A stretch of DNA of 64,000 nucleotides, taken from assembly GCA_035468285.1 (NCBI GenBank), contig DATISY010000071.1, forward strand, positions 39,697-103,696, given 5' to 3'. Each line of letters begins with the position of its first letter. Position 1 is the stretch's first letter. Made by a program: the position numbers and the translations under genes. The notes under the pieces are model-generated. The model searched no databases and had not been told where the DNA came from. It saw only the letters and a program-made list of their open reading frames with translations. This document shows, piece by piece, positions 7,645 to 45,902 of this stretch. The DNA comes from Acidimicrobiia bacterium. Lineage in GTDB: Bacteria > Actinomycetota > Acidimicrobiia > IMCC26256 > PALSA-555.

Positions 7645-7761
7645 GCTGTCCTCCCTGAAGTCGGCGTCAGACTAGGAGGGCGGGCACCGACACCGCCGGG
7701 CCTCCACTCGCGGCCGGTGGGTCGTTTTGACCCGGTGGTCTGGGGCGGGTTCGATGGGCGG

Positions 7762-8775
7762 ATGCGACTGCGCCTCGACCCGGCCGACGAGTACATGCAT
7801 CCGCTGGAAACGGCGAGCAACTTCAACGAGAGCATGTACTTCAACTGCTTCGACGCCCGCGAGCGCGTCGGGGGGTTCCTGCGGCTCGGCAACCGGGCCA
7901 ACGAAGGGTACGCCGAGCTCACGACGTGCCTGTACCTCCCGGACGGGCGGGTGGCATTCACGTTCCACCGGCCGGAGATCTCATCGAACGACGCGTTCGA
8001 CGCGGGCGGGATGCGCTTCGAGGTCGTCGAGCCGTTTCGCGCGCTTCGGGCCTCGTATCGGGGCAAGATCTGCCTCCTCGAGCATCCGCTCGAGATGGCC
8101 GACCCGCGTCGCGCCTTCACCGAGAACCCGTGGACGGACGCCGAGGTCGAGCTCGACTACCGCGGCGTGTCGCCCATGCTCGGCGGGGAGCCGGTGAATG
8201 ACGACGGCACTCCCCTCAGCGAGGATCCGACCCAGGGCTTTGCGCGTGGTCACTACGAGCAGCACGTCGGCGCGCGGGGTGTGATCCGGGTCGGTGACGA
8301 CGAGTGGGCGATCGAGGGGTACGGCCTGCGCGACCACTCGTGGGGTCCCCGGTTCTGGCAGGCCCCGTGGTGGTATCGGTGGCTGACCGGCAACTTCGGC
8401 GAAGACGAGGGGTTCGTGCTCTCCGTCATCACCGCACGGGACGGGGGCCAGCGCGTCGGCGGGGTCTGGTTCGCCAACGGCGAGTACCGCAATCTCGACC
8501 ACGTGACGATCGACACCACGTGGCGGACCGACGACCAGTACCACGAGCACATCCACGCGGTCGCGGTCACCGGCGACGAGGAGCACGTGATCGACGGGAC
8601 GGTCTTGTCCTTGATCCCGCTCCGCAACCGGCGCCAGACCCCCGACGGGGAGCAGCTCGTCACCCGCATCTCCGAGGGCATGACCGAGTGGAGGAGCGAC
8701 GGCCGGGTCGGGTACGGCCTCTCCGAGTACCTCGACCAGATCGTCGACGGTCAGCCCGTCGGCGTCGCGGCCTGA
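7762..8775 (+). CDS. Hypothetical protein, possibly AttH/CrtC-like beta-barrel (hydratase-like) fold
   Basis: A clean 337-aa ORF from ATG 7762; the upstream part of the tracked ORF 7216.. is antisense to the CoA-transferase. It contains GYGLRDHSWGPRFWQAPWWYRW, reminiscent of the DHxWG motif of AttH/CrtC-type proteins. The fold call is weak. Confidence 0.6.
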   Translation: MRLRLDPADEYMHPLETASNFNESMYFNCFDARERVGGFLRLGNRANEGYAELTTCLYLPDGRVAFTFHRPEISSNDAFDAGGMRFEVVEPFRALRASYRGKICLLEHPLEMADPRRAFTENPWTDAEVELDYRGVSPMLGGEPVNDDGTPLSEDPTQGFARGHYEQHVGARGVIRVGDDEWAIEGYGLRDHSWGPRFWQAPWWYRWLTGNFGEDEGFVLSVITARDGGQRVGGVWFANGEYRNLDHVTIDTTWRTDDQYHEHIHAVAVTGDEEHVIDGTVLSLIPLRNRRQTPDGEQLVTRISEGMTEWRSDGRVGYGLSEYLDQIVDGQPVGVAA

Positions 8776-12999: not shown

Positions 13000-13968
13000 C
13001 TACTGCTTGGCCTTGATCGCCTCGATGAGCTTCGGGACCACTTTGTGGACATCGCCGACCACTCCGAGGTCGGCGACCGAGAAGATGGGGGCCTCACCAT
13101 CCTTGTTGATCGCCAGGATGTTGTCGGAACCCTTCATGCCGACGAGATGCTGCGTCGCGCCCGAGATCCCCAATGCCACGTAGAGCTTCGGTTTCACGAC
13201 CTTGCCGGTCTGGCCGACCTGTTTGGCGTAGGGAACCCAGCCGGCGTCGACGATGGCCCGTGACGCACCCGAGGCACCGTGGAGCAGCTTGGCCAGCTCC
13301 TCGACGAGGGGCTCGTACGCCTCGGCGCTGCCGAGGCCGCGACCACCGGACACGACCACGGTCGCCTCCTCGAGCTTGGGTCCCTCACGCTCCTCGACGT
13401 GTCGCTCGAGGACCTTCGCCGCGCCGGCCCGTCCAGCGTCGGCCGCCGCGACCTGCTCCACCTTCGCCGGGCCACCCCCGCTGGGCTCGGCGGGGAACGA
13501 CTTGGGGCGGATCACGGCGAGATAGGGACCAGGGCCGGTGAACGCGGTGTCGACGAGGGTGTTGCCACCGAACGCGGCAGTGCCCACGATGACCCGGTCC
13601 CCGTCGACGCGGAGCGCGGTGCCATTGGTGACCAGCGGCCGGTCGAGGACCGCCGAGAGGCGGGCCACCGCGTCGCGCCCGTCGTAGGTCTGCGCGAAGA
13701 GGATGAGGTCGGGCTGGTGGGTCGCCGCGAGCTCCTTCAGCGCGGCCGCGCCCATGACGCCGCTGAGCGCGTCGCCGGGATCGACCGCGTACATGGTGGT
13801 GACGCCATGCTCGCCGAGCGGGGCGGCCAGCGTGTCGGCGTCGCCCCCGACGTAGACGGCCTCGACGGTGTCGCCGAGCTCCCGGGCCTTGGTGAGCAGC
13901 TCCAGCGTGCTCGAGTGCGGCTTCGCGCCATCCCTCTCGGCATAGACCCAAACTTTGGAGATTCCCAT
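13000..13968 (-). CDS. etfA: Electron transfer flavoprotein alpha subunit
   Basis: 322 aa with the C-terminal FAD-binding region [10 protein letters not shown]...RAIVDAGW...[25 protein letters not shown], diagnostic for EtfA. Confidence 0.95.
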
Positions 13969-19270: not shown

Positions 19271-20425
19271 GTGCGCTTCGGCACCTTCCTCGCCCCGTTC
19301 CACGACGTCGGGCAGAACCCGACACTGGCCCTCGAGCGCGACCTGGACCTGCTCGTGCACCTCGACCGGCTCGGGTTCGACGAAGCCTGGATCGGTGAGC
19401 ACCACTCCGGCGGGTTCGAGCTGATCGCGTCCCCGGAAGTGTTCATCGCCACCGCGGCGGAACGCACCCGGCACCTGCACCTGGGAAGCGGCGTGAACTC
19501 GCTCCCCTACCACCAGCCCCTCATGCTCGCCGACCGGTTCGTGCTGCTCGACCACCTCACCCGGGGTCGGGCCATCCTCGGCTGCGGGCCCGGTCAGCTC
19601 ACCTCCGACGCGTTGATGATGGGCATCCCGCCCGACACCCAGCGGCCGCGCATGGAAGAGGCCCTCGACGTGATCGTGCGGCTCCTTCGGGGCGAGACCG
19701 TCACCGCGCACACCGACTGGTTCACGCTCGATGACGCCCGCCTGCAGCTCGCGCCCTACTCACCCGACGGCATCGACATGGCCGTCGCCGCGTCGTTCTC
19801 CCCCGCGGGCCCTCGGGCCGCCGGCCGGTACGGGCTCGGTTTGCTGTCGATCGGCGCGACGACCGAGATCGGCTTCGACGTCCTCGCCCAGCACTGGGAT
19901 GTCATGGAGCAACGGGCTGCGGAGTTCGGTCAGCGCGCTGACCGCGCGCGGTGGCGCCTCGTCGGGCCGATGCACCTGGCCGACACGAAGGACCAGGCTC
20001 GCCGCGACGTCGAGTTCGGCATCCTTCCGTTCGCGCGGTACTTCCGGCACGTGCTGCCGGCAAGTCCGGTGGGTGACGCCGACGACGTGCCCGGCATCCT
20101 CGAGTACTGCGACCAGACCGGATTCGCCGTGATCGGCACACCCGACGACGCCATCCGCCAGCTCGAGCGTCTCGAGGAGCAGTCCGGTGGGTTCGGGACC
20201 TTCCTCGTGTTCGGCCACGAGTGGGCCGACCGGGAGGCGACCTTCAAGAGCTACGAGCTCTTCGCCCGGTACGTCATGCCACACTTCCAGGGTCAGCTGG
20301 AGCCGATCCGTCACTCCTACGACTGGGTGGCGGGCAGCGGCGGACGGTTCGTCAACGCGGCGACGAACGCCATCAACAAGGCCATCGAGGATCACGCCGC
20401 CGAGCGAGCAGTCCGCTCGACCTAG
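19271..20425 (+). CDS. LLM-class flavin-dependent oxidoreductase (luciferase-like monooxygenase)
   Basis: MRFGTFLAPFH...LGFDEAWIGEHHSGGFELIASPEVFIA is the typical LLM TIM-barrel N-terminus. 384 aa. Confidence 0.9.
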   Translation: MRFGTFLAPFHDVGQNPTLALERDLDLLVHLDRLGFDEAWIGEHHSGGFELIASPEVFIATAAERTRHLHLGSGVNSLPYHQPLMLADRFVLLDHLTRGRAILGCGPGQLTSDALMMGIPPDTQRPRMEEALDVIVRLLRGETVTAHTDWFTLDDARLQLAPYSPDGIDMAVAASFSPAGPRAAGRYGLGLLSIGATTEIGFDVLAQHWDVMEQRAAEFGQRADRARWRLVGPMHLADTKDQARRDVEFGILPFARYFRHVLPASPVGDADDVPGILEYCDQTGFAVIGTPDDAIRQLERLEEQSGGFGTFLVFGHEWADREATFKSYELFARYVMPHFQGQLEPIRHSYDWVAGSGGRFVNAATNAINKAIEDHAAERAVRST

Positions 20426-23149: not shown

Positions 23150-23563
23150 ATGACGCGGAGGGCCTTCGAGCTGGTGTCCATCGGTCGGGTCGAGTCTCCC
23201 TTGATCGACCGGTCAACGGCCCCGAAGCAAGGTGATGAGGGGTCGCCGCCGGCGTGTCTCGTCTTCGACGAAGCGGTCACCGACGCCCTCGCCGACATCG
23301 GCGCGCGAGACGACGTCATCGTCCTGACGTGGCTGCACCGCGCCCAGCGCGACGTGTTGCGCGTCCATCCTCGAGATGACCGCACCCAGCCGGAGTGAGG
23401 CGTGTTCAGCACCCGCTCGCCGGACCGACCGAACCCGATCGGGCTCCATCACGTCCGCGTCGTCTCGGTCGAGGGCCGACGGGTCCAGGTCCGAGACCTC
23501 GAGGCCATCGACGGCACCCCGATCGTCGACGTCAAGCCGGTGCTGCGCCATCGCGGCGCCTGA
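23150..23563 (+). pseudogene. TrmO/TsaA-family (YaeB-like) tRNA methyltransferase gene interrupted by one in-frame TGA at 23396-23398
   Basis: The 82-aa ORF 23150..23398 (MTRRAFELVSIGRVESPLIDRSTAPKQ...) is the N-terminal half of the family. The same frame continues after the TGA as GVFSTRSPDRPNPIGLHHVRVVSVEGRRVQVRDLEAIDGTPIVDVKPV..., the conserved C-terminal half, ending at TGA 23561-23563. Confidence 0.75.
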
Positions 23564-23614: not shown

Positions 23615-24859
23615 TCATGCGATGACGCCGGCCTCGCGCAATCGAGCCAGCTCGGCGTCGTCGAGGCCCAGCTCCTCGTGTAGGACCTGGTCGGTGTGCT
23701 CGCCGACCCACGGGACTCGCGTCTCGGGGCCGTCCGCGACCTTGGACAGCTTCACCGGGTTGCCCGGCATGAGATACGGGGGTTCCCCGTCCGTGCGGGG
23801 CACCTCGACGAGCATGTCGCGGGCCGCGACGTGCGGGTCCGCGATCACGTCGGGCGCGGTGTTGACCGGGCCGGACGCAATGCCAGCCTCATTGAGCTCC
23901 CGGGCCGCCTCGAGCTTGGTCTTCCCCGCGGCCCACCCCTCGATCGCGGGTCGGATCACCTCCTCGAGGTGGACGCGCCAACCCTCCCGCGTCGCGAAGC
24001 GAGGATCGTCGAGCCACTGCGGTTGCCCGATCATCTTCGCCAGCCGTTCGAACTGGTGCTCCCGCCCGACCTGGACGACGAACCAGCCATCGCGGGCGCG
24101 GAACCCATCCATGATCAGCAACGGGCCGAGCCCGCCGGGCCGCAACCCCATCGACCAGAAGTTCGTGACGAGATCCGTCATCGCGACCACCGCGTCGAGC
24201 ATCGCGACGTCGACGTACTGGCCTTCGCCGGTGTGATCACGGTGACGGAGCGCGGCGAGCGCTCCGATCACCGCGAACATCGCGCTCGAGATGTCACCGA
24301 GCGCGCCGACGGGACCGACCACCGGTGGTTGGTCCTCCGGCTGCTTGAACGAGTAGATCCCCGACATCGCCTCGACGATCGGGGCGTACGCGGCCCACGA
24401 GTCGTACGGGGACGGCACGGTGTTGCCGAATCCCGACACCGACACGTAGATCAGCCGCGGGTACTCGGAGGCCAGGTCCTGATACGCGAGGCCCATGCGG
24501 GCCATCGTCCCCGGCTTGAAGTTCTCGGCCACGATGTCAACGTGACCCGCGAGCGCCCGGAACAGGTCTCGGCCCTCCGGGGCCTTCAGGTCGATGCCGA
24601 CACTGCGCTTGTTGAGGTTGTTGCGCAGAAACGTCGCGCCGGCGAGGCGACCTGTCGGGTCCTTCATCGCGGGAAGTGCGCCACGTCCCGACTCGCCATC
24701 TCGGGGGTGCTCGACCTTGATGACGTCGGCGCCGAGACGGGCCAGCACCTGCGTCCCGAACGGCAACGCCTGCATCTGCTCCGCGGCGAGGACCCGGATG
24801 CCGTCCAGGGGCTTCCCGTACCGCAGCGCGTCGGCGTTGGCGACGTCGCCGAGCTTCAT
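23615..24859 (-). CDS. Family III CoA-transferase (CaiB/BaiF)
   Basis: MKLGDVANADALRYGKPLDGIRVLAAEQMQALPFGTQVLARLGADVIKVEHP is a typical family III N-terminus. ATG 24859 chosen; the tracked ORF begins at 24988. Confidence 0.85.
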   Translation of the reverse strand: MKLGDVANADALRYGKPLDGIRVLAAEQMQALPFGTQVLARLGADVIKVEHPRDGESGRGALPAMKDPTGRLAGATFLRNNLNKRSVGIDLKAPEGRDLFRALAGHVDIVAENFKPGTMARMGLAYQDLASEYPRLIYVSVSGFGNTVPSPYDSWAAYAPIVEAMSGIYSFKQPEDQPPVVGPVGALGDISSAMFAVIGALAALRHRDHTGEGQYVDVAMLDAVVAMTDLVTNFWSMGLRPGGLGPLLIMDGFRARDGWFVVQVGREHQFERLAKMIGQPQWLDDPRFATREGWRVHLEEVIRPAIEGWAAGKTKLEAARELNEAGIASGPVNTAPDVIADPHVAARDMLVEVPRTDGEPPYLMPGNPVKLSKVADGPETRVPWVGEHTDQVLHEELGLDDAELARLREAGVIA

Positions 24860-25005
24860 CGCTCCACCGGCGCGGAAGTACGCGGCATTTGTCGAGTCAT
24901 GGCCCGCATCGTAGAGCCGCTCGCGACCGGACTCGGTGAGCGTGACGTACGATCCCCGTCCGCTCGAGTGCCGGGATCGGGACAACACACCGAAAGGGAC
25001 GATCG

Positions 25006-25935
25006 ATGAGGGTACGAATCCAGCTGCTCGCCGTCGCGACGGTCACGGTGTTCGCGCTCGGGTCGGCTCCGACGGTCGCGGGCGCCAAGCTGCCGCCACC
25101 GCGCAAGAACCATCAGCAGCAGGCGTCGGCGCTGTTCGTCGTCAACGCCAGCGGCGGGACCGCGACCAGCCCGACTGGATCGACGTTCACGCTGGACCTG
25201 TCGGGTGTGAACCCAGACGCGGTGTTCTTCACCGACCGGCCCGCACGCGACACCGGCGTGCTCGGCGTCGACCGGATGCTCCAGGTCCTGCGCGACGGCC
25301 AGCGCACCCCGCCCAACGGCGTCGTCGACGTCTCGGGCGGCCAGCAGGGACCCTTCGCCGTGGCGGTGGAGCTGACCAACCCGTCGTACGACCAATCCAG
25401 TCACACGCTCCACTACCAGGCCCACACCCTCAAGAAGACGAAGGGCACCCGGCTCACGCACTACGACCGCCGCCTCGACACCCAGCTCCCCGGCCAGTTC
25501 GGCCGCGCCGCGCTGTTCATCGACACCTCGCCGTTCGGCAGCACGAACTTCTGCGGCGTGACCGTCGCGAACTACACCGAGCAGAACGTCACCCTGAACA
25601 ACCAGTCCAAGTGGGGCACCGACACATGGGACCCGTCGCCCCCCAACAACGGGTTCATCCTCGGGCTCGTCGCGAACACGTACTGGCAGAGCGACGGCGG
25701 ATTCGCTCGCGGGTGCGGCAACTCCACGACGTGGCAGCAAGCGGACGGCACGACGTTCAACACGAGCGTGACCGATCCGTACGGCAACAACCCCAACTCA
25801 ATCAGCTGCACATCGTCGGACCCGACCGGTCACCCCTGCCACCTCGACCCGTCCAGCGTCACCCGGGGACCGGACGCGCAGGTCACCTTCTATTTCTGCG
25901 ACTTTGCGCGCCAGAGCATCTGCCCCGGCCAGTAG
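25006..25935 (+). CDS. Secreted two-domain protein of unknown function with a Cys-rich, Asn/Thr/Gln-rich C-terminal domain
   Basis: Signal peptide MRVRIQLLAVATVTVFALGSAPTVAGA and RBS AAGGGA upstream. The C-terminal ~135 aa contains 6 Cys. Codon third positions stay GC-rich, so codon usage looks native. Confidence 0.75.
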   Translation: MRVRIQLLAVATVTVFALGSAPTVAGAKLPPPRKNHQQQASALFVVNASGGTATSPTGSTFTLDLSGVNPDAVFFTDRPARDTGVLGVDRMLQVLRDGQRTPPNGVVDVSGGQQGPFAVAVELTNPSYDQSSHTLHYQAHTLKKTKGTRLTHYDRRLDTQLPGQFGRAALFIDTSPFGSTNFCGVTVANYTEQNVTLNNQSKWGTDTWDPSPPNNGFILGLVANTYWQSDGGFARGCGNSTTWQQADGTTFNTSVTDPYGNNPNSISCTSSDPTGHPCHLDPSSVTRGPDAQVTFYFCDFARQSICPGQ

Positions 25936-26072: not shown

Positions 26073-27479
26073 ATGCAGGGGATTCTGAGCGCCGCCGGGT
26101 ACGTGCCGTACCGGCGACTGGACCGCAGCACGATCACGAAGACGTTCGGTTCCGGTGGGGGACGCGGCACCCGCGCCGTCGCCGGCTACGACGAGGACAC
26201 GACCACCCTCGGCGTCGAGGCCGCACGCCTGGCCCTGCGCGGCGCACCCGGCATCGCCCCCCAGGCGCTCTGGTTCGCGACCGTGGCGCCCGCCTACCTC
26301 GACAAGACCAACGCCACCACGATCCACGCCGCGCTGCGCCTCGACGGCGACGTCCTCGCGGCGGACTTCGGGGGTGCGATCCGCTCCGGCGTCGGTGCGC
26401 TCGTCGCCTCGCTCCACGGTGGCACCCCGACCCTCATCGTCACCGCCGACACCCGCGACGGGCTGCCCACCAGCGGCGACGAATCCGCCGGCGGTGACGC
26501 CGGGGCCGCGATCCTCGTCGGCTCCGACTCGGACGGCCCGCTCCTCGCCACCCTTATCGGCGAGGGCCACGCCACCGAGGAGTTCCTCGACCGGTGGCGC
26601 ACCCCCGGCGACCGCCGCTCCAAGGTCTGGGAGGAGCGGTTCGGCGAGACGAAGTATGTGCCGCTCGGCGAGCAGGCCTGGAACGTCGCGCTGAAAGCCG
26701 CCGAGCTCACCGCCGACCAGATCAGCCGAGTGATCATCACCGGCCCGCACGCGCGCGCCATCCGCGCCCTCACCGGACGACTGGGCGTCGAACCGGACCG
26801 CGTCGTCGACGACCTCGCAGGCTCGGTCGGGTACTCGGGCGCAGCGCACCTCGGCCTGCTGCTCGCCGCGACACTCGAGACCGCCCAACCGGGCGAGATC
26901 GTCGCCATCGTCTCGCTCGCCGACGGCGCAGACGCCCTGCTCTTCCGGGTCACGGACACGATCACGGCATGGAAGCCCGCCCGGAGCGTGGCGGCCCAAG
27001 TCGCCGGTGGCGCCGACCTCCCGTACGGAAAGTTCCTCAGCTGGCGCGGCACGGTGACCCTCGAGCCGCCGCGCCGGCCCGAGCCCGATCGGATCTCCGC
27101 GTCCGTCACCGGGCGCACCGAGCACTACAAGTACGGGTTCGTCGGATCGCGAGACCGGGCGAGCGAAGCGCTGCACCTGCCACCCGCCCGCGTGTCCCGG
27201 GTCGGGGGCGCGGTCGACGACATGGATTCGGTGCCGATGGCCGATGTGCCCGGCACCATCGCGGCATTCACCATCGACCGCATCGCGTACTCGCCGAGTC
27301 CACCCATCGTGTTCGCCATCGTCGACTTCGACGGCGGAGGTCGACTGCCGGTCGAGCTGACTGACGTGAACGCCGATGACCTCCAGGTCGGTGACCGGGT
27401 CGAGATGACCTTCCGGCGGCTCTTCACCGCTGACGGAATCCACAACTACTTCTGGAAGGCTCGCCCTATCCGGGGCTGA
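26073..27479 (+). CDS. HMG-CoA-synthase/KAS-III-like thiolase-fold domain fused to a DUF35-type OB-fold domain (cysteine-free)
   Basis: The N-terminal ~330 aa follows the HMGS-like pattern (GYVPYRRLDR...AGYDEDTTTLGVEAA...). The C-terminal ~130 aa follows the DUF35 OB-fold pattern (GTIAAFTIDR...VDFDGGGRLPVELTD...GDRVEMTFR). The 468-aa translation contains no Cys at all. Confidence 0.85.
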   Translation: MQGILSAAGYVPYRRLDRSTITKTFGSGGGRGTRAVAGYDEDTTTLGVEAARLALRGAPGIAPQALWFATVAPAYLDKTNATTIHAALRLDGDVLAADFGGAIRSGVGALVASLHGGTPTLIVTADTRDGLPTSGDESAGGDAGAAILVGSDSDGPLLATLIGEGHATEEFLDRWRTPGDRRSKVWEERFGETKYVPLGEQAWNVALKAAELTADQISRVIITGPHARAIRALTGRLGVEPDRVVDDLAGSVGYSGAAHLGLLLAATLETAQPGEIVAIVSLADGADALLFRVTDTITAWKPARSVAAQVAGGADLPYGKFLSWRGTVTLEPPRRPEPDRISASVTGRTEHYKYGFVGSRDRASEALHLPPARVSRVGGAVDDMDSVPMADVPGTIAAFTIDRIAYSPSPPIVFAIVDFDGGGRLPVELTDVNADDLQVGDRVEMTFRRLFTADGIHNYFWKARPIRG

Positions 27480-27522
27480 GCGCGACGCCGGCGGAGCCGG
27501 CCGAGGAGAAGGCACAGAACCC

Positions 27523-28719
27523 ATGAGCTCGCACGGGATCAAAGACCAAGTCGCCATCGTCGGCATGGGATGCACGCGCTTCGGCGAGCATTGGACCAAA
27601 GGCGCCGACGACCTCCTGATCGATTCGACCACGGAAGCGCTCGAAAGCGCCGGCGTCGGGAAGCATGACGTCGACGCGTTCTGGCTCGGCACCGCCATGT
27701 CGGGGATGTCAGGGATGACGCTGTCGCGTCCCCTCGAATTGCAGAACAAGCCGGTCACCCGGGTCGAGAACTTTTGCGCCACCGGGTCCGAGGCGCTTCG
27801 CAACGCGGCGTACGCGGTCGCGTCAGGCGCGTACGACATCGCGATGGCTGTCGGCGTCGAGAAGGTGAAGGACAGCGGCTACCAGGGACTCGTCGGCGCG
27901 GGCAAGACGCCCACGGACGGCACGAACCGGACGTTGACCGCGGCCGCGATGTTCGCGATGTGCGCGCCCGCCTACGGAGCGAAGTACGGCGTCAGCGAGG
28001 AGCAGATGCGGGAGGTGCTGGCCCGCATCTCGTGGAAGAACCACTACAACGGGGCGCGGAACCCCCGGGCGCAGTTCCGCAAGGAAGTCACGATGGACAC
28101 GATCTGCGGTGCGCCGCTCATGGCGGGTGGCCTGCGGGTCTTCGACTGCTCCGGCGTGGCCGACGGGAGCGCCGCCGCGGTGCTGGTGCGGGCGGAGGAC
28201 GCGGCGAAGTACACCGACAAGCCGTTGTACGTGAAGGCGCTGTCGTTCGTCGCGGGGAACGCCTCCGGGAACGCCGACCCGGACTACGACTACACGTGGT
28301 TCCCCGAGATCCACGCCGCGGGACAGGACGCGTACGCCCAAGCGGGCGTGACCGACCCGCGCGGGCAGATCTCAATGGCGGAGGTCCACGACTGCTTCAC
28401 CCCGGCGGAGCTGCTCATCTACGAGGACCTCGGGTTCGTCGAGCGGGGCACGGCCTGGAAAGAGGTCCTCGCGGGGACGTTCGATCTCGCCGGCGACCTG
28501 CCCGTCAACCCGGACGGTGGCCTCAAGAGCTTCGGGCACCCGGTCGGCGCGTCGGGGCTGCGGATGTTCTTCGAGACGTGGCTGCAGCTGCGGGGCGAGG
28601 CGCCCGAGGATCGGCGGATCACCACCGCGGATCGGGGACTCGCATTGACCCACAACCTGGGCGGCTACCCGGGCGAGATGGTCAGCTTCGTCGGCATCGT
28701 GGGCAACGAACGAGGCTGA
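27523..28719 (+). CDS. SCPx-type thiolase (lipid-transfer-protein/Ltp-like acetyl-CoA acyltransferase)
   Basis: VAIVGMGCTRFGEH, nucleophile region ENFCATGSEALRNA, AEVHDCFT, and NPDGGLKSFGHPVGASG. A strong RBS GAGGAGAAGG lies in the 43-bp gap after the preceding gene. Confidence 0.9.
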   Translation: MSSHGIKDQVAIVGMGCTRFGEHWTKGADDLLIDSTTEALESAGVGKHDVDAFWLGTAMSGMSGMTLSRPLELQNKPVTRVENFCATGSEALRNAAYAVASGAYDIAMAVGVEKVKDSGYQGLVGAGKTPTDGTNRTLTAAAMFAMCAPAYGAKYGVSEEQMREVLARISWKNHYNGARNPRAQFRKEVTMDTICGAPLMAGGLRVFDCSGVADGSAAAVLVRAEDAAKYTDKPLYVKALSFVAGNASGNADPDYDYTWFPEIHAAGQDAYAQAGVTDPRGQISMAEVHDCFTPAELLIYEDLGFVERGTAWKEVLAGTFDLAGDLPVNPDGGLKSFGHPVGASGLRMFFETWLQLRGEAPEDRRITTADRGLALTHNLGGYPGEMVSFVGIVGNERG

Positions 28720-28735: not shown

Positions 28736-29827
28736 TCAATCCAGCCAGTCTCGGATGACCGCCGCCCGACCGGCGTCCAGGTCCGGGCCCGTGGCCGTGC
28801 GCATCGGCTCGGTGCTCCCTCGGGACTGGACGTGGGGATCGGCGAGCATTGCGGCCACGTCGTTGACGGGCGCCACGGGGATGCGGGCCGCCAGGAACGC
28901 GTCGATGACGGTGTCGGCGTCGCGGGCGGCGATCCAGTCGGCGACGAGCGCGTCGAGCTCGTCGGCGTGGCCCATCCGGGTCGCGGCCTGCCCATAGCGC
29001 GCCCGGCTGCCGGCATCGTCGCGGTCGAGCAGCGCCAACAGCCGGGCCACCTGCGGATCGGTGGTGCCCGACACCGCGACGTACGCGCCGTCCGCGGCGC
29101 GGTACACGTTGCGAGGCGCGCCGCCCCGGACTCGGCTTCCTGATCGGCTCGGCGGGTCAGCCGGGTCGTAGCTCGCGATCGTCCCCCCGAGGACCTGGAG
29201 GACCGGCTCGTACATGCTGACGTCGACGAGACGGCCGCGGCCGTCGCCTCGGTCGCGACCCCAACCGGCGGCCAGCGCGCCGATGACCCCCGAGAATGCG
29301 GTCAGGGTGTCCCCGACCGGCACGGACGACAACATCGGGGGGCCTTCGGGATCCCCCGTCAGGTCGGTGAGGCCCGCGAACGCCTCGGCGAGGGTGCCCG
29401 CTCCCGGCCTGGCCGCGTACGGGCCGGTCAGCCCGTAGCAGCTGACAGCGACGACGACGAGGCGAGGGTTGAGGGCGGCGAGGTCCTCGAAGGTGCACGC
29501 CCAACGGGCCCGCACGCCCGGTGTCAGGTTCTCCACGAGGATGTCAGCGACCGACACCAGCTCGCCGAAGACGATCCGGTCGTCGGTGGTGTCGAGGTCG
29601 AGCACGATCGACCGCTTTCCTCGTGCCACCCAGGACCAGTTGCGCGAGACCCCGTCGCCGACCACGCCCATGCGGCGCATCGGGTCACCCCCGGGCGGCT
29701 CGACCTTGACGACGTCCGCGCCCAGGTCTGCGAGCATGGCACCGATCTGCGGCGCGGCGTAGAGGGTGGCCAGCTCGACGACGCGCAGTCCGGTCAGCGG
29801 GAGGTCGGGGTTCGGCGCTGGGCTCAA
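28736..29827 (-). CDS. Family III CoA-transferase (CaiB/BaiF)
   Basis: LTGLRVVELATLYAAPQIGAMLADLGADVVKVEPPGGDP is typical of the family. The TTG start overlaps the cupin stop (TTGA). Confidence 0.85.
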   Translation of the reverse strand: MSPAPNPDLPLTGLRVVELATLYAAPQIGAMLADLGADVVKVEPPGGDPMRRMGVVGDGVSRNWSWVARGKRSIVLDLDTTDDRIVFGELVSVADILVENLTPGVRARWACTFEDLAALNPRLVVVAVSCYGLTGPYAARPGAGTLAEAFAGLTDLTGDPEGPPMLSSVPVGDTLTAFSGVIGALAAGWGRDRGDGRGRLVDVSMYEPVLQVLGGTIASYDPADPPSRSGSRVRGGAPRNVYRAADGAYVAVSGTTDPQVARLLALLDRDDAGSRARYGQAATRMGHADELDALVADWIAARDADTVIDAFLAARIPVAPVNDVAAMLADPHVQSRGSTEPMRTATGPDLDAGRAAVIRDWLD

Positions 29828-30175: not shown

Positions 30176-31054
30176 TCACAGTTCGCTTGCGGGGCCGACG
30201 AAGTCGTCACCCAGCTTGGCGATCGCGTCCCGTGCGCCGGGCGCGTCGAGCGCGAAACCGGTGAGGACCAGCTGGTCGACGCCGGCGTCCCGATAGGCGG
30301 GTAGGTGGGACGGTTGCACCGGCTGCATGTAGGCGCCGATCGTCACGTCGATCTCGGACCGGCCTCGCCCGGCGTCGGCGAGGTGCTTCTCGAGCTGGCG
30401 GACCGACGCGGCCGCGGAGTCCGGCAGGTGGTTGAAGCCGTGCCAGCCGTCGCCTTGGGTCGCGACGCGGCGGAACGCGGCGTGGGTCTCCCCTCCGAAG
30501 TAGATCGGCGGGTGGGGCCGTTGCACCGGCTTGGGGTACATCCGGCAGGGAGGCAGCGCGTAGTGGGCGCCGTCGTAGCGGGACACCTCGTCCCGCCAGC
30601 AGGTCTTCATGACCTCGACGTAGTCGCGGGTCCGCGCCGCCCGGTCCGGGAACGGCGCATGGAGGACTTCGAACTCCTCGCGGAGCCATCCGATCCCGAT
30701 CCCGAAGTCGACCCGGCCGCCGGACAGCCAGTCGACGTTCGCGACCTCTTTGGCCGTGTACACCGGGTTGCGTTGGGGCACGAGGCACACCGCGGTGCCG
30801 AGCCGCAGCCGGTCGGTGACCGCGGCGAGGTAGGTGAGAGTGCTGAAGAGCTCCAGCATGCCGTTGTCGGCGGGAAGACCCAACCGGCCGTCCTCGGCGT
30901 ACGGGTAGCTCGAGCGGTACTCGTCGAGGAACACGACGTGCTCGCCGAGCCAGATCGAATCGAACCCAGCCGCTTCGGCCGCTTCGGCGTAGGCCGTCAG
31001 GTACTCCGGTGTCGCGATCGGGGACACGCTGGGCAGGAACAGGCCGAGGCGCAC
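30176..31054 (-). CDS. LLM-class (probably F420-dependent) oxidoreductase
   Basis: MRLGLFLPSVSP...AGFDSIWLGEHVVF is the typical LLM N-terminus. 292 aa. It is the first gene of an LLM-cupin-CoA-transferase run on the minus strand. Confidence 0.85.
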   Translation of the reverse strand: MRLGLFLPSVSPIATPEYLTAYAEAAEAAGFDSIWLGEHVVFLDEYRSSYPYAEDGRLGLPADNGMLELFSTLTYLAAVTDRLRLGTAVCLVPQRNPVYTAKEVANVDWLSGGRVDFGIGIGWLREEFEVLHAPFPDRAARTRDYVEVMKTCWRDEVSRYDGAHYALPPCRMYPKPVQRPHPPIYFGGETHAAFRRVATQGDGWHGFNHLPDSAAASVRQLEKHLADAGRGRSEIDVTIGAYMQPVQPSHLPAYRDAGVDQLVLTGFALDAPGARDAIAKLGDDFVGPASEL

Positions 31055-31215: not shown

Positions 31216-31647
31216 ATGGCGCGCGAGCTGAGCACCGCGGAGTACGAGGAGCTGCTCCGGTTCCGGACCGGCCTGCGGCGGTTCCTGCGATGGAGCGAAT
31301 CGGAGGCCGCAGCGGCTGGCCTCACCCCGGCGCAGCATCAACTCCTCTTGGCGGTCCGAGGCCACGTGGGCCAGACCGGGCCGACCATCGGCGACGTGGC
31401 GGACTCGCTGCTGTTGCGTCATCACAGCGTGGTGGGGCTGGTCGACCGCGCCGAAGCCGCGGGGCTGGTGCGCCGACGTGTCGACCCCGACGACGCCCGA
31501 GTCGTGCGCCTCGCGTTGACCCCGACGGGTTCGCGGCGCCTGGCGCGGCTCACCGACGCGCATCTCGACGAGCTGGCCGTGCTGGCCACCACGGTACGGT
31601 CGTTCTCGGACGTCCTCACCGAACGCGGGCACCTCCGCGACTCGTGA
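31216..31647 (+). CDS. MarR-family transcriptional regulator
   Basis: 143 aa from ATG 31216. Winged-helix region LTPAQHQLLLAVRGH...GPTIGDVADSLLLRHHSVVGLVDRAEAAGLVRR. It is divergent from the LLM-cupin-CoA-transferase run. Confidence 0.85.
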   Translation: MARELSTAEYEELLRFRTGLRRFLRWSESEAAAAGLTPAQHQLLLAVRGHVGQTGPTIGDVADSLLLRHHSVVGLVDRAEAAGLVRRRVDPDDARVVRLALTPTGSRRLARLTDAHLDELAVLATTVRSFSDVLTERGHLRDS

Positions 31648-32176: not shown

Positions 32177-33130
32177 ATGATCCCGGCCGTGCGTCACGCA
32201 AACCGGCCGTTGCGCTTCGGCGTGATCACGTCGCATGCACCCGACGGCTCGGCGTGGCGAGCGCGCGCGCAGCGAGCCGAGGCGTTGGGCTACTCGTCGC
32301 TGCTCATGCCCGACCATTTCCAGGACCAGTGGGCACCGATTGTCGGGCTCACCGTCGCGGCCGAGGCCACGACCACGCTTCGGGTCGGGACGCTCGTGTT
32401 CGACAACGACTATCGGCATCCGGTCGTCCTGGCCAAGGAGCTCGCAACCCTGGACCGGGCCACGGGCGGTCGCCTCGAGGTGGGGATCGGCGCGGAGTGG
32501 AAGCGGACCGACTACGACGAGGCGGGGATCCCGTATGACCGACCCGGCGTCCGCATCGAGCGCATGGCAGAGGCGCTGACCGTGATGCGGGCCCTGTGGG
32601 CATCCGAGGAACCGGTCGTCTTCGAGGGGACGCACTACCGGATTCAGGGCGCGGTGGGGACTCCCCGACCGACACAGGTTTCGCCGCCCGTCTGCATCGG
32701 CGGTGGTGGTCGGCGCATCCTGTCGCTCGCCGCGCGTGCCGCGGACATCGTCAGCGTGAACGTCACCCTCACCGCGGGTGAGCTCGGTGCGGGAGTCGCC
32801 GCGTCCGCGACGCCACAGGCGTTCGACGAGAAGATCGGCTGGATCCGTGACGCGGCCGGCGAACGGTTCGAGACGATCGAGTTGCAGTGCCACTGCCCGT
32901 TCGTCATGGTCACGGCGGACGCCACGAGCATCGCCGAGCGGATGGGAGCCGGGTTCGGGCTCTCGGCCACGGACGCGCTCGAGGTTCCGCTCACGTTGTT
33001 CGGGACCGTCGACGAGCTGTGCGACATGGTGGAGGCTCGACGCGAGCGCTACGGCTTCAGCTACTGGATCGTCCCGGACGACGCGATGGAGGCGTTCGGC
33101 CCGGTGGTGGCACGTCTCGCCGGCCGTTGA
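32177..33130 (+). CDS. LLM-class F420-dependent oxidoreductase
   Basis: RPLRFGVITS...ALGYSSLLMPDHF...LRVGTLVFDNDYRHPVVLAKELATLD fits the pattern of the F420-dependent LLM subfamilies. 317 aa. Confidence 0.85.
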   Translation: MIPAVRHANRPLRFGVITSHAPDGSAWRARAQRAEALGYSSLLMPDHFQDQWAPIVGLTVAAEATTTLRVGTLVFDNDYRHPVVLAKELATLDRATGGRLEVGIGAEWKRTDYDEAGIPYDRPGVRIERMAEALTVMRALWASEEPVVFEGTHYRIQGAVGTPRPTQVSPPVCIGGGGRRILSLAARAADIVSVNVTLTAGELGAGVAASATPQAFDEKIGWIRDAAGERFETIELQCHCPFVMVTADATSIAERMGAGFGLSATDALEVPLTLFGTVDELCDMVEARRERYGFSYWIVPDDAMEAFGPVVARLAGR

Positions 33131-33145
33131 ACGCGGCGAGGACGC

Positions 33146-34156
33146 TCAGGTCCGGAACCCCGCGAGGACGCCCTTCCAACGGTCGGGGTCGCTGCGGTAC
33201 GGGGCGTAGAAGCTGATGCGGTCGACGAGGTCGCCGTAACGCTCGAGCAGCCGCTTGGGGATGTCCTCGGGTGAGGCGACGACGGCGAACGCCTCGAGGA
33301 TGTCGTCGGTGATGAGATTGCCCATCTGGGTCCATTCGCCGCGTTTGGATGCCGCGTTCAGCTCGGTTTGGAGATCTCCCCACCCGTGGAGCTCGAGCAC
33401 GCCGCGGTACGCGGGCGTGGAACCGTAGAACGCGATCTGCTGCTTAGTGCCCTCCCGGGCCTGCTCCAGCTCCTCGTCGCTGGTGCCGGTGACCACGAAG
33501 AGGGGGCCGCACACCTCGAAGTCGGCGCGGGATCGTCCGCTCGTGGCGAACCCCCGCTCCAGGGCCGGCATCGTCACCTCCCGGACGTAGCGCTCCGTGG
33601 TGAAGCCGTGGAGGATGATTCCGTCCGCGACCTCGCCGGCCACCTCGGTCATGCGCTCACCGACCGCGGCGAGCTGAATCGTGGGCAACCCGTGCGGGTT
33701 CGGACCCGGATTGAAGAACGGGGTCATGAGCGTGTGGCGGTAGAACTCGCCCCGGAAGTCGAGGGGCACGCCCTCGTGCCATGTGGCCCAGATCGCCCGG
33801 ATCGCCAGGATCAGCTCCCGCATGCGGGGCGCGGGATGCGACCACGGCATCGAGAACCGCTTCTCGATGTGCGCCTTGATCTGACTGCCGAGCCCGAGCC
33901 GGAAACGGCCGCCCGAGAGGGCGTGGAGGTCATAGCTCAGGTTGGCGAGCGTCATCGGCGTCCGGGCGAACGCCACCGCGATCCCGGTGCCGAGCTCGAG
34001 GCGCTCGGTGTGCTCGGCCGCGATGACCAGGGGCAGGAAGGGGTCGTGGCTCGTCTCGGCGGTGAGGCCGCCGTCGTAGCCGACGTCTTCGAGCTCCCGG
34101 GCGACGCGAGCGACCTCCTCGGCCCCGAGGCCGCCCAACCCCCCGTCGATCTTCAT
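33146..34156 (-). CDS. LLM-class F420-dependent oxidoreductase
   Basis: MKIDGGLGG...VGYDGGLTAETSHDPFLPLVIAAEHTERLELGTGIAVAFARTPM is typical of this family. ATG 34156 chosen. Confidence 0.85.
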   Translation of the reverse strand: MKIDGGLGGLGAEEVARVARELEDVGYDGGLTAETSHDPFLPLVIAAEHTERLELGTGIAVAFARTPMTLANLSYDLHALSGGRFRLGLGSQIKAHIEKRFSMPWSHPAPRMRELILAIRAIWATWHEGVPLDFRGEFYRHTLMTPFFNPGPNPHGLPTIQLAAVGERMTEVAGEVADGIILHGFTTERYVREVTMPALERGFATSGRSRADFEVCGPLFVVTGTSDEELEQAREGTKQQIAFYGSTPAYRGVLELHGWGDLQTELNAASKRGEWTQMGNLITDDILEAFAVVASPEDIPKRLLERYGDLVDRISFYAPYRSDPDRWKGVLAGFRT

Positions 34157-34241
34157 GCCCGCGGAGCGTACCGGCACCGGCCCCGACGGGGCTCCGAGTG
34201 GTCCGCGGCCCCGTCACACCCCGGCGATACCCTCCGATCTG

Positions 34242-38353: not shown

Positions 38354-39544
38354 ATGGCAGCACGTCCTGACACCGAGGTCGTCATCGTCGAAGCGGTCCG
38401 CACCCCGCTCGGCAAACGCAACGGCGGGTTGGCAACCGTCCATCCGGCGGACCTCCTTGGCGCGGTGCAGCGCGCCGCCATCGACCGGTCGGGCATCGAT
38501 CCGGCCGCGGTCGGGCAGGTCATCGCGGGGTGTGTCTCGCAGACCGGCGAGCAGACCTTCGACATCGCCCGGACCGCGTGGCTGAGCGCCGGGCTGCCGA
38601 TGGAGGTGGCGGGGACGACGGTCGACGCGCAGTGCGGCTCGTCCCAGCAGGCCACGAACCTCGGCGCGGCGCTGATCGGCGCCGGTGTCGTCGACGTTGT
38701 GCTGGCAGGCGGCGTGGAATCCATGAGCCGTGTGCCGCTCGGCACGGCGGTCTCCCAAGGTCCGGGGCGGCCCCTCCCCAAGCCGTACTTCGAGCGGTTC
38801 GAGCTGACGTCCCAGTTCGAGGGAGCGCAGCGCATCGCGGACAAGTGGAGTGTCAGCCGGGAGGACTGCGACCGGTTCGGGCTGCAGTCCCAGCAGCGGG
38901 CTCACGCGGCGTGGGCCGAGGGTCGCTTCGAGCGCGAAGTGCTTCCCGTCGACGCGCCGGACCGGGGTGAGGACGGCAAGCCCGCCGCGACGACCCACCG
39001 GGTCGAGCGCGACGAGGGGCTGCGGGAGACGTCGCTGGAGGCACTGGCGGCGCTGAAGCCCGTGGCGAGAGAAGACGGGGTCCATACCGCGGGTTCCTCG
39101 TCCCAGATCACCGACGGCGCGGCCGCGGTCCTCTTGACGTCGGCGGCGCGAGCCGAGGAGCTCGGGTTGCGGCCCCGCGCCCGGATCGTCGACCAGTGTC
39201 TCGTCGGCGTCGACCCCGTGTTGATGCTGACCGGCCCGATCGACGCCACCCGCCGGCTCTTCGACCGCACCGGGCTGACCATGGGCGACCTCGACACGAT
39301 CGAGATCAACGAGGCGTTCGCGTCCGTCGTGCTCGCCTGGGCGAAGGAGGTCCAGCCGAACATGGATCTCGTCAACCCCAACGGGGGCGCCATCGCCATC
39401 GGTCATCCGGTCGGGGCCACCGGGGCGCGGCTCGTGACCACCGCGCTGCACGAGCTCGAGCGCACCGATGGCCGGTACGGGCTCATCACCATGTGCTGCG
39501 GTGGCGGGCTCGGCACGGGGACGATCATCGAGCGGCTCGCGTAG
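38354..39544 (+). CDS. Acetyl-CoA C-acyltransferase (degradative thiolase)
   Basis: VVIVEAVRTPLGKRNGGL, nucleophile region TVDAQCGSSQQA, NEAFASV, and C-terminal MCCGGGLG. Classical thiolase I/II motifs. Confidence 0.9.
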   Translation: MAARPDTEVVIVEAVRTPLGKRNGGLATVHPADLLGAVQRAAIDRSGIDPAAVGQVIAGCVSQTGEQTFDIARTAWLSAGLPMEVAGTTVDAQCGSSQQATNLGAALIGAGVVDVVLAGGVESMSRVPLGTAVSQGPGRPLPKPYFERFELTSQFEGAQRIADKWSVSREDCDRFGLQSQQRAHAAWAEGRFEREVLPVDAPDRGEDGKPAATTHRVERDEGLRETSLEALAALKPVAREDGVHTAGSSSQITDGAAAVLLTSAARAEELGLRPRARIVDQCLVGVDPVLMLTGPIDATRRLFDRTGLTMGDLDTIEINEAFASVVLAWAKEVQPNMDLVNPNGGAIAIGHPVGATGARLVTTALHELERTDGRYGLITMCCGGGLGTGTIIERLA

Positions 39545-44400: not shown

Positions 44401-45684
44401 TCAACCCGATCGGGGGACGTCCTTCCAGGCCAGGTCCCTGGAGCTGTCCGGCTCCTTCGGCAGTCCGAGCACCCGCTCCCCCAAGATGTTGCGCATGATG
44501 TTCGACGTGCCGCCCTCGATGGTGTTGGCCTGGGCCCGGAGGAAGCCTCGGGCAATCGCCGGTCGGTCCTCGCCCATCCCGCCGATGTAGGCGAGCGGAC
44601 CCTCGGGCCGCGTCGCGCCGGTCGGTTCCCACGCCACCCCGCCGAGGCCTTCCAGGTCGACGGCCAGCTTCTGGAGCCGCTGGTTGAATTCTGCCTGCAT
44701 CAGCTTTGTGATCGATCCCTCGGGCCCGGCTTCGGCGCCTGCCTTGCGCTTGTCACCGGCCCGCTGGTTGTTGAGCCGGATCAGACGGCCGTCGATGTAG
44801 AGCTGAGCGACCCGTTGGCGCAGCAGCGGGTCCGTGATCGGGTGGTGGCGCTTCATGAGCGACGCGATGGGGCTCCCGCCGACCGCGTCGCCCGCGAGGG
44901 AGCCGGCGCCGGAGAGCGCGACCCGCTCGTTCATCAGCGTCGTGACGGCGACCCGCCATCCCTCTCCTTCGGGCCCGACACGCATGGACTCGGGGATCCG
45001 GACGTTGTCGAAGAAGACCTCGTTGAACTCGGCGTCGCCGGTGATCTGCACCAGCGGGCGCACCTCGACGCCGGGGGCCTGCATGTCGACGATGAAGTAG
45101 CTGAGCCCCTTGTGCTTGGGCACGTCGGGATTGGTGCGGGCCACGAGCATCCCGTACCGGGCGATGTGGGCGAGCGTCGTCCAGACCTTCTGACCGTTCA
45201 CGACCCACTCGTCGCCGTCACGGACGGCGCGGGTCGACAGGCCGGCGACGTCGGATCCGGCGCTGGGCTCGCTGAAGAGCTGGCACCAGATCTCCTCGTT
45301 GGTGGCGAGGCCGCGGAGCAGCTTGTGCTTCTGCTCCTCGGTGCCCCAGGTGATCACGGTCGGACCGCCCATGCCGATGCCGATGATGTTGAAGGGGCGC
45401 GGTACCCGATAGTGGTTGAGCACCTCGTTGACGTCTTTCGCCTGCGTCGGGCTCAGCGAGAGGCCCGCGCCGTACTCCGCCGGCCAGGTCGGAGTCGCGT
45501 AGCCCGACTCGCCGAGGCGGGTGCACCAGGCGCGGTAGTCCAGCCCGTGGCGCAGCTCCTCGAAGCGCGCGTCGTCACCGTTGTCGACCGCCTCCATCCA
45601 ACCGTCGGGCAGCTCGGCACGTAGGAAGGTTCGGACCTGCTCGCGGAGCTGCTCGTCAGTGAGTTCGGCGGTATCGATCGCCAT
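44401..45684 (-). CDS. Acyl-CoA dehydrogenase (FadE-type)
   Basis: WCQLFSEPSAGSDVAGL, EWVVNGQKVWTT and GEGWRVAVTTL are ACAD motifs. ATG 45684 (MAIDTAELTDEQLREQV) chosen. Confidence 0.9.
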   Translation of the reverse strand: MAIDTAELTDEQLREQVRTFLRAELPDGWMEAVDNGDDARFEELRHGLDYRAWCTRLGESGYATPTWPAEYGAGLSLSPTQAKDVNEVLNHYRVPRPFNIIGIGMGGPTVITWGTEEQKHKLLRGLATNEEIWCQLFSEPSAGSDVAGLSTRAVRDGDEWVVNGQKVWTTLAHIARYGMLVARTNPDVPKHKGLSYFIVDMQAPGVEVRPLVQITGDAEFNEVFFDNVRIPESMRVGPEGEGWRVAVTTLMNERVALSGAGSLAGDAVGGSPIASLMKRHHPITDPLLRQRVAQLYIDGRLIRLNNQRAGDKRKAGAEAGPEGSITKLMQAEFNQRLQKLAVDLEGLGGVAWEPTGATRPEGPLAYIGGMGEDRPAIARGFLRAQANTIEGGTSNIMRNILGERVLGLPKEPDSSRDLAWKDVPRSG

Positions 45685-45902
45685 GGGCCCTCCTGGTCTG
45701 GGCGTGGAACGGATCGTACCGGGAGTCGGGGCCGCGCCGCTGCCCTCCGGCACGGATGGTGCGAACCCGCAGCGCACCGCTCTCGCCGGTATCCTTGAAC
45801 AACGACGCCGCCGCACCATGGAACGACCACGTCTCGTGTGTCACCCGAGGCGAAGCCACCGCGGTGCGCAGGGCGGGTCCGGGGGGGACGGACGGAGGCG
45901 TG

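Follow-up and report, generated by a model that had tools for sequence, protein, structure and literature searches.

A cysteine-free HMGS-like/DUF35 fusion protein encoded beside an SCP2-type thiolase in an Acidimicrobiia genome

The window analyzed here is a 64,000-nucleotide stretch of contig DATISY010000071.1 from an Acidimicrobiia bacterium. It encodes, side by side on the forward strand, a fusion of a 3-hydroxy-3-methylglutaryl-coenzyme A (HMG-CoA) synthase (HMGS)-like domain with a DUF35 module, and a thiolase of the sterol carrier protein 2 (SCP2) type. Both open reading frames (ORFs) are borne out, the first at 26073..27479 (+, ATG start, 468 amino acids) and the second at 27523..28719 (+, ATG start, 398 amino acids), and proteins identical to the pair are present in an Acidimicrobiia metagenome-assembled genome. 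The features of the pair, in window positions, are as follows.

26073..26972 (+), HMGS-like thiolase-fold domain, predicted to be catalytically dead (about residues 1-300), from alignments to 6esq_I and PhlA, column counts and the AlphaFold2 (AF2) model
Former catalytic codons (+): V71, 26283..26285; I103, 26379..26381; T223, 26739..26741; Y254, 26832..26834
26973..27134 (+), linker (about residues 301-354) with the conserved segment Y318..L322..W-R..EPPRRPEP, from column conservation
27135..27218 (+), degenerate DUF35 zinc ribbon (residues 355-382), the former Cys4 columns being without Cys
Former Cys4 codons (+): D361, 27153..27155; S364, 27162..27164; S375, 27195..27197; G378, 27204..27206
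27219..27479 (+), DUF35 domain with an oligonucleotide/oligosaccharide-binding (OB) fold (residues 383-468) followed by the stop codon, from the Pfam match OB_ChsH2_C and the modeled β-barrel
27503..27512 (+), purine-rich Shine-Dalgarno-like element GAGGAGAAGG, read in the 43-bp gap before the thiolase start
27523..28719 (+), SCP2-type thiolase resembling archaeal acetyl-CoA acetyltransferase (ACAT), 398 amino acids, the putative catalytic subunit, from NCBIfam, Pfam and motifs
Thiolase key codons (+): Cys85, 27775..27777; His289, 28387..28389; Cys291, 28393..28395; His339, 28537..28539

The fusion protein and its neighboring thiolase

Pfam matches in the fusion cover residues 207-285 (ACP_syn_III_C, the C-terminal half of the 3-ketoacyl-acyl carrier protein synthase III (KAS-III)/HMGS type) and residues 387-448 (OB_ChsH2_C, the DUF35 OB fold, E 5.9e-12), and there is no cysteine among the 468 residues. 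These matches agree with a sequence-only reading of the same DNA, which had described a cysteine-free HMGS/KAS-III-like domain fused to DUF35. The NCBIfam model for archaeal HMGS, PRK04262, aligns over residues 2-328 with 113 bits, under its 244-bit cut-off, and TIGR00748 gives 79.5 bits, under a cut-off of 353. The 43-bp gap between the genes had also been described correctly. In it, where a strong ribosome-binding site had been noted, GAGGAGAAGG is a plausible binding site for the thiolase gene, at a rather long spacing of ∼10 to 14 nt.

The fusion was aligned with HMMER to the archaeal HMGS 6esq_I and to PhlA (5m3k_A), 208 full-length fused homologs were aligned with MAFFT, and columns were counted separately in 89 diverse homologs. 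In the alignments to 6esq_I and PhlA, HMGS Glu82 corresponds to V71, Cys114 to I103 and His238 to T223, while Asn270 corresponds to Y254 or to a gap, according to the alignment used. V71 and I103 lie in the motifs ATVAP and GGAIRSG, which had been picked out from the sequence as the Glu and nucleophile sites, and the whole Glu-Cys-His-Asn tetrad is missing from the half that had been suspected of being dead. Across the 208 full-length fused homologs of the MAFFT alignment, the nucleophile column never holds Cys and the Glu column never Glu, so inactivation is a trait of the whole fused family rather than of this gene. The alignments show a domain that, judged by its residues, should be incapable of HMGS chemistry. 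A true HMG-CoA synthase was rejected as the identity of the fusion given the absence of the tetrad and the PRK04262 and TIGR00748 scores.

An AF2 model of the fusion, built on 115 homologs, has a mean predicted local distance difference test score (pLDDT) of 96 and a predicted template modeling score of 0.94. Foldseek comparison with the PDB places at the top 9skh (the PhlA-type subunit of CsATase), the archaeal HMGS chains 6et9_I and 6esq_I, 9vbo (MucA) and PhlA (5m3k/5mg5), and at lower ranks free-standing HMG-CoA synthases and FabH/OleA/BioZ enzymes. The matches to 6et9_I and 6esq_I (template modeling score 0.86, root mean square deviation 2.2-2.4 Å) identify the HMGS/KAS-III thiolase fold. 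The top PDB sequence matches are PhlA-type subunits (5m3k_A, E 6e-16; 9skh, E 3e-14), and the nearest solved relatives by both sequence and fold are the HMGS-type subunits of four solved thiolase/DUF35 complexes (9skh, 6esq/6et9, 9vbo and 5m3k). The modeled OB β-barrel is formed by strands 384-388, 394-402, 412-419, 424-429, 442-453 and 456-465. In the linker that joins the two domains, Y318, L322 and R348 are near-invariant among the 115 homologs, and P332, P333, R335, P336, P338 and R340 are invariant in 18 of 18 orthologs. By analogy with solved complexes, this linker is probably the counterpart of the helices or tail at the N terminus by which stand-alone DUF35 proteins contact their partners; the N-terminal tail of PhlB makes tight contacts with PhlA and PhlC (PMC6392133).

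The thiolase retains Cys85 (in FCATGS), H289-D-C291-F and G-H339-P, all of them invariant in 61-62 orthologs, in line with the earlier identification of an SCPx-type enzyme with intact catalytic residues. It matches Thiolase_N and Thiolase_C_1 in Pfam and scores 590 bits against PRK06157, the NCBIfam equivalog for acetyl-CoA acetyltransferase (cut-off 403). Its PDB matches include 6esq_A of the archaeal complex (E 1.4e-52), 4yzo and 7yvy, with weaker matches to BbsAB (7pxp, E 3.8e-37), PhlC (E 5e-22) and Ltp2 (6ok1, E 8e-20). Motifs and score together identify an SCP2-type (archaeal ACAT-like) thiolase.

These comparisons bear on two other activities for the pair. Since PhlA-type subunits head the PDB sequence matches of the fusion, one could imagine a CoA-independent or acetyl-CoA-dependent Friedel-Crafts C-acyltransferase of secondary metabolism, like PhlACB, MucABC or CsATase, with a small molecule as acceptor. 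However, the HDCF motif is kept, whereas its loss in PhlC and MucB defines the acylase branch (PMC12960953); the thiolase is far nearer archaeal ACAT (E 1e-52) than PhlC (E 5e-22); and the neighbors are CoA-transferases, luciferase-like oxidoreductases and acyl-CoA dehydrogenases rather than polyketide synthases (PKS) or nonribosomal peptide synthetases (NRPS). A Friedel-Crafts acylase, which we rejected on the retained HDCF and the catabolic context, is thus extremely improbable. A retro-aldolase like Ltp2 or Sal, with DUF35 supplied by the fusion rather than by a hydratase, is suggested by the DUF35 partnership itself, an analogy already drawn from the sequence, and by hot-dog hydratase pairs and two-subunit acyl-CoA dehydrogenases in related loci that resemble chsE/chsH/ltp2. 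Ltp2, however, uses paired Tyr residues and Sal a YDCY motif (Sal paper), whereas the thiolase of the window is canonical, with Cys85, HDCF and GHP kept and invariant in its orthologs; it also exceeds the PRK06157 cut-off and matches Ltp2 only weakly. An aldolase of either type was rejected on the retained thiolase residues and is very improbable.

The fused family is large. At the 90% identity level a word-indexed search gives at least 8000 clusters, 7999 of those listed having E <= 1e-5. When representatives at 50% identity were searched exhaustively, 646 clusters reached E <= 1e-30, many of them full-length (∼450-500 amino acids) and down to 29% identity. Members occur in Acidimicrobiia, Streptomycetaceae, Rhodococcus, Mycobacterium, Bacillaceae, Sphingomonadaceae, Variovorax, Azoarcus and Paraburkholderia, the proteobacterial ones being only ∼29-36% identical to the fusion of the window; a fused and dead HMGS half is the norm in this very large family. 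Many members are named 'hydroxymethylglutaryl-CoA synthase' in JGI/IMG and in some NCBI records. This annotation is wrong because the HMGS catalytic residues are absent, and it could lead to false mevalonate-pathway calls in metagenomes.

Gene context was sampled in 80 related genome loci, 61 of which have a full 8-kb upstream flank. In 77 of the 80 the fusion is immediately followed by the thiolase, and the two genes are inherited together. The median identity between the protein of the window and the fusion orthologs of these loci is 65%, which we read as purifying selection on a non-catalytic protein. These observations bear on whether the fusion could be a functionless, decaying relic beside a thiolase that works alone. 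Liao et al. suggest that a purified Pseudomonas fluorescens complex of this kind may be an evolutionary intermediate that no pathway has recruited, and that complex formation may be vestigial (PMC12960953). Against a relic speak the intact ORF, the size of the family, the adjacency to the thiolase, the many invariant columns and the very confident fold prediction, as well as the finding that related thiolase subunits are inactive or insoluble alone (PMC6392133, PMC12960953). We rejected a pseudogene or relic on the strong conservation and the very large family, and consider it highly unlikely.

The zinc ribbon of the DUF35 module

The four cysteines of the DUF35 zinc ribbon had been noted as gone, and the column counts bear this out: the ribbon columns are Cys in 72-74 of the 89 diverse fused homologs, and hold D361, S364, S375 and G378 in the protein of the window. 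Pfam zf-ChsH2 matches the Cys4 homologs at the segment equivalent to residues 357-383, and it has no match in the window protein or in a related DSSG-type protein. The ligands are lost in every close homolog (D[ST]SG in 120 of 120, at >= ∼60% identity), and the homologs of Yinghuangia soli and a Streptomycetaceae strain share the loss. Among distant fused homologs CCCC is kept in 72 of 88, and ∼16 of the 88 distant representatives are also without ligands. The homologs of Rhodococcus, M. avium, Variovorax, Azoarcus and Novosphingobium have Cys4. From these sequences, loss of all four zinc ligands is particular to a clade of Acidimicrobiia and a few Streptomycetaceae.

Of the two parts of a DUF35 protein (PF01796 plus PF12172), the OB fold is thus present and the Cys4/Cys3His zinc ribbon is absent. 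The structurally characterized DUF35 domains all bind zinc through Cys4, except CtShy, which uses Cys3His (Sal paper). A ligand-free ribbon is therefore a real departure, because every solved DUF35 coordinates zinc. The ligand-free segment is modeled by AF2 at pLDDT 93-97, and the ribbon in this clade would fold without zinc.

The complete absence of cysteine is a separate matter. The Cys frequency over the ORFs of the window is ∼1.1%, giving a naive probability of ∼0.006 for no Cys in 468 residues. It is only mildly unusual, because four ORFs of the window of >=200 amino acids have none (13000..13968, 23615..24988, 26073..27479 and 54796..55701), and we therefore rejected the zero count as a striking statistic in itself. 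The informative point is the loss of specific functional cysteines and not the zero count. A neighboring CoA-transferase (23615..24859, -) is likewise cysteine-free, and the avoidance of cysteine may extend beyond the fusion to some other proteins of this genome.

Known complexes, gene neighborhood and proposed function

Dead thiolase-superfamily partners of DUF35-dependent enzymes have several precedents. Krishna et al. described in 2010 DUF35 domains fused to thiolase-superfamily members, and phlABC as a set of an active superfamily protein, an inactive one and DUF35 (PMC2954200). Pavkov-Keller et al. (2018) reported the Phl(A2C2)2B4 architecture, in which PhlB bridges PhlA and PhlC dimers; in PhlA, Gly115 replaces the HMGS Cys and Cys83 replaces the Glu, only PhlC residues (Cys88) catalyze, and active PhlACB needs co-expression of all three subunits (PMC6392133). 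Liao et al. (Nat Commun 2026) solved MucABC, found MucB alone to be insoluble or inactive, and mined 1,030 bacterial HMGS/ACAT/DUF35 loci, 1,001 of which lack a secondary-metabolism context (PMC12960953). The same authors purified P. fluorescens PfACAT/HMGS-DUF35, a dead HMGS-DUF35 fusion with a thiolase that keeps Cys, HDxF and GHx; it makes neither HMG-CoA nor acetoacetyl-CoA but cleaves acetoacetyl-CoA thiolytically, and the H294Y substitution in HDxF nearly abolishes cleavage (PMC12960953). The 2010 description, PhlA and this purified fused form contradict what the sequence-only reading implied, that no such arrangement had been characterized. Its proposal of a pseudoenzyme scaffold for the thiolase holds in substance, given the tetrad loss, the adjacency of the two genes and these dead-HMGS homologs, but is not new. 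Its background on the archaeal complex and on Ltp2-ChsH2 agrees with the literature.

The pair of the window resembles PfACAT/HMGS-DUF35 in all of its layout: two genes, a tetrad-free HMGS fused to DUF35 in one polypeptide, an adjacent thiolase with Cys, HDxF and GHx, and no PKS or NRPS neighbors. It differs in that the clade of the window lacks all four ribbon Cys and every other cysteine as well, whereas Cys4 is kept in every proteobacterial fused homolog examined; it also comes from Acidimicrobiia. The likeness to the Pseudomonas complex is drawn from the published description.

Other solved systems share parts of this layout. PhlACB (PpATase), CsATase and MucABC (SmaATase) (5m3k/5mg5, 9skh and 9vbo) also combine a dead HMGS-like subunit, an SCP2-type thiolase and DUF35, but as three separate polypeptides with HDxF lost, a zinc-binding DUF35, PKS or NRPS clusters and aromatic or tetramic acceptors. 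The archaeal thiolase/HMGS/DUF35 complex (6esq/6et9), with a similar thiolase and HMGS fold, is the likely ancestor architecture. As summarized in later papers, it supplies the mevalonate pathway with HMG-CoA by channeling acetoacetyl-CoA (via PMC6392133, PMC12960953); as far as it is described there, its HMGS is active (Glu82, Cys114, His238 and Asn270) and its DUF35 is separate and zinc-binding, in contrast to the fusion. The benzoylsuccinyl-CoA thiolase BbsAB (7pxp) is a degradative SCP2-type thiolase with HDxF that needs a DUF35 partner (PMC12960953), and its pathway also uses a family III CoA-transferase, BbsEF (9fn0, which is among the PDB matches obtained). Unlike the fusion, BbsA is a stand-alone DUF35 without an HMGS-like domain, and BbsAB has a known substrate and occurs in anaerobic toluene degraders. 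In ChsH2(DUF35)-Ltp2 and Shy(DUF35)-Sal, a fused DUF35 docks on a thiolase-fold enzyme within a β-oxidation-like cluster that also encodes hydratases of the hot-dog type and acyl-CoA dehydrogenases of two subunits, as in relatives of the locus of the window; there, however, DUF35 is fused to a hydratase, the partner is a retro-aldolase with altered residues and the zinc site is Cys4 or Cys3His.

The conserved neighborhoods tie the family to catabolic β-oxidation. Beside the pair, divergent from the fusion, lies a gene that we call CoAT1.

23615..24859 (-), family III CoA-transferase CoAT1, 414 amino acids, Pfam CoA_transf_3, E 7e-98

Among solved structures, CoAT1 comes nearest not to racemases but to a CaiB/BaiF protein, succinate-hydroxymethylglutarate CoA-transferase and formyl-CoA transferase. 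Its orthologs (>=40% identity) occur in 38 of the 80 loci, mostly directly upstream of the fusion and divergent from it, and as a conserved neighbor it is particular to the clade of Acidimicrobiia and a few Streptomycetaceae. CoAT1 is likely an activator of the free acid substrate or a recycler of the CoA thioester product. In related Acidimicrobiia loci (L007-L082) a divergent operon recurs upstream of the fusion, and the neighbors in the 61 full-flank loci are as follows.

Thiolase, 59
CoAT1 ortholog, 31
α-Methylacyl-CoA-racemase-like protein, 35 (matches 1x74, the MCR of M. tuberculosis, at E 6e-58)
PimC-like large acyl-CoA dehydrogenase subunit (ACADa), 36
PimD-like small acyl-CoA dehydrogenase subunit (ACADb), 33
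Hot-dog protein, FAS1_DH_region/HadA-like, 35
Hot-dog protein, MaoC-like, 36

ACADa, ACADb and the racemase occur all together in 32 of the 61. A major facilitator superfamily (MFS) transporter is often found with these neighbors, and the genes are typically arranged as MFS< ACADb< hotdog< hotdog< racemase< ACADa< [CoA-transferase<] fusion> thiolase>. In the 64-kb window itself this block of acyl-CoA dehydrogenase, hot-dog hydratases and racemase was sought, and only distant paralogs were found; the locus is of the subset that keeps only the CoA-transferase beside the pair.

Cultured bacteria carry the pair on annotated plasmids, likewise within operons of the β-oxidation type. On a Variovorax plasmid the order is a short-chain dehydrogenase/reductase (SDR), MaoC, fusion, thiolase, acyl-CoA dehydrogenase and CoA-transferase. 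In Rhodococcus DK17 a thiolase, an SDR and a crotonase lie downstream, and CaiB/BaiF, acyl-CoA dehydrogenases and HMG-CoA lyase lie upstream. The M. avium pair is near a CoA ligase, hydratases and a ring-hydroxylating dioxygenase, and that of Azoarcus near a MaoC pair, an SDR, an electron-transfer flavoprotein and a CoA-transferase. On plasmid p3 of Novosphingobium sp. ES2-1 (L087 5963..17365), an acyl-CoA dehydrogenase, an SDR, the fusion, the thiolase and two enoyl-CoA hydratases are found together, and genes for a cytochrome P450 and an acyl-CoA ligase of the FadD3 family lie near the pair. A lipid-transfer protein paired with a stand-alone OB-fold (DUF35) protein lies ∼2 kb away on the same plasmid, which places two distinct DUF35-dependent thiolase-fold systems in one steroid-like catabolic cluster.

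Taking sequence and context together, we consider it likely that the pair forms a two-gene HMGS/thiolase/DUF35 complex in which only the thiolase is enzymatic and which serves a specialized β-oxidation thiolysis. The fusion would descend from an archaeal-type HMGS that lost its catalytic set and became covalently joined to the DUF35 adaptor. By analogy with the solved complexes, it would be a structural subunit, with DUF35 and the conserved linker clamping the thiolase dimer, and the dead HMGS dimer completing a shared chamber for CoA and substrate and keeping the thiolase soluble and active. By homology with SCP2-type enzymes, Cys85 would form the acyl-enzyme, His339 would activate it and HDCF (His289/Cys291) would act as acid/base, giving the thiolytic cleavage of a 3-oxoacyl-CoA as the net reaction; the neighboring family III CoA-transferase may load CoA onto the free acid. 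Judged from synteny, the pair probably performs the last step of a specialized β-oxidation of bulky, 2-methyl-branched or dicarboxylic acyl-CoA. By our own comparison, the set of racemase, R-hydratase, SDR and SCP2-type thiolase parallels the peroxisomal AMACR/MFE-2/SCPx route, and BbsAB/BbsEF offers a parallel for a DUF35-thiolase found together with a family III CoA-transferase.

Three points weigh against a purely structural subunit in such a pathway. The pathway assignment draws on relatives, because the window lacks the dehydrogenase/hydratase/racemase block. Without its zinc ribbon, DUF35 could make a weaker or different contact with the thiolase, to judge from CtShy, whose zinc finger shapes the substrate cleft of its partner (Sal paper). 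Finally, the dead domain has near-invariant charged residues (D40, E41, D42, D98, R104, D126, R128, E137, D142, R176 and R189, in 115 fused homologs down to 29% identity), a pattern that may reflect a ligand-binding role or some catalytic one.

This last point leads to the alternative of an HMGS-like domain that is not passive, but is active without cysteine, or regulates the complex or delivers its substrate as a specificity subunit, for instance by binding the acyl-CoA and passing it to the thiolase or by controlling chain length. Besides the 11 conserved charged residues, it can draw on the chamber at the interface of HMGS-like and thiolase subunits, which is retained in PpATase and SmaATase (PMC12960953), and on the 2010 proposal that PhlA regulates chain length while DUF35 delivers acyl-CoA (PMC2954200). 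On the other hand, D98, D126, E137 and R176 are common to active HMGS in the alignment to 6esq_I and PhlA, compared by eye, and some of the conserved residues may thus be structural. Moreover, in PhlACB only PhlC contacts the substrate (PMC6392133), and no activity is reported for PhlA, MucA or the Pseudomonas fusion (PMC6392133, PMC12960953). We regard such a role as unlikely, although it deserves some weight.

Little is added here on how such complexes work; dead HMGS-like partners of DUF35-dependent thiolases, the fused form included, are already published. This member of the family stands out by the ligand-free ribbon of its clade and by neighboring genes that hint at its physiological role. 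The neighborhoods offer testable substrates for complexes whose physiological role is open in the literature. We speculate that the fused pairs are not leftovers, as the 2026 paper suggested, but a dedicated thiolysis module in a widespread bacterial route that degrades bulky, 2-methyl-branched or dicarboxylic acyl-CoA by β-oxidation, and that the Acidimicrobiia clade holds the first DUF35 to fold and dock without zinc, a combination that we put at somewhat less than an even chance. Together with the SCP2-type thiolase, the full set may comprise the racemase, an acyl-CoA dehydrogenase of two subunits, a pair of R-hydratases and an SDR, and would be a bacterial counterpart to the peroxisomal AMACR/MFE-2/SCPx route. 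A zinc-free DUF35 could be an adaptation to zinc-poor or oxidizing habitats, consistent with the complete absence of cysteine. With its ligand-free ribbon, this sizeable clade, which includes the cultured Yinghuangia soli, is a natural experiment on the contribution of the zinc site to assembly.

Other genes in the window

Two further genes adjoin the pair.

25006..25935 (+), ORF of 309 amino acids with a hydrophobic, signal-peptide-like N terminus and 6 Cys, between CoAT1 and the fusion
28736..29827 (-), second family III CoA-transferase, 363 amino acids, convergent with the thiolase, of generic CaiB/BaiF type, Pfam CoA_transf_3, E 3e-101

The 309-amino acid ORF has no Pfam or NCBIfam match and no homolog in the 80 related loci, and in relatives the CoA-transferase adjoins the fusion gene directly. 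It was rejected as a core part on its absence from all 80 loci and is probably a lineage-specific insertion, not part of the system. The second CoA-transferase has its ortholog cluster in 4 of the 80 loci, all of them closest relatives; it was rejected as a core part on this count, and its membership in the system is uncertain.

Elsewhere in the window, a classical thiolase (38354..39544, +; Thiolase_N plus Thiolase_C, not SCP2-type) and an acyl-CoA dehydrogenase (44401..45819, -) are not orthologous to the module of the relatives. A third family III CoA-transferase (6499..7644, -) lies beside a 519-amino acid ORF with DUF7064 and DUF7065 (7216..8775, +); the two overlap by ∼430 bp, so one start is probably mis-set. 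A 53-amino acid gene (23402..23563, +) matches only the N-terminal part of TrmO (PF01980) and looks like a fragment. Four luciferase-like (Bac_luciferase) oxidoreductase genes lie within 15 kb around the pair (19271..20425, 30176..31054, 32177..33130 and 33146..34177). A MarR regulator (31216..31647) and a SnoaL-like protein are encoded among them, and all of these may belong to a larger catabolic island.

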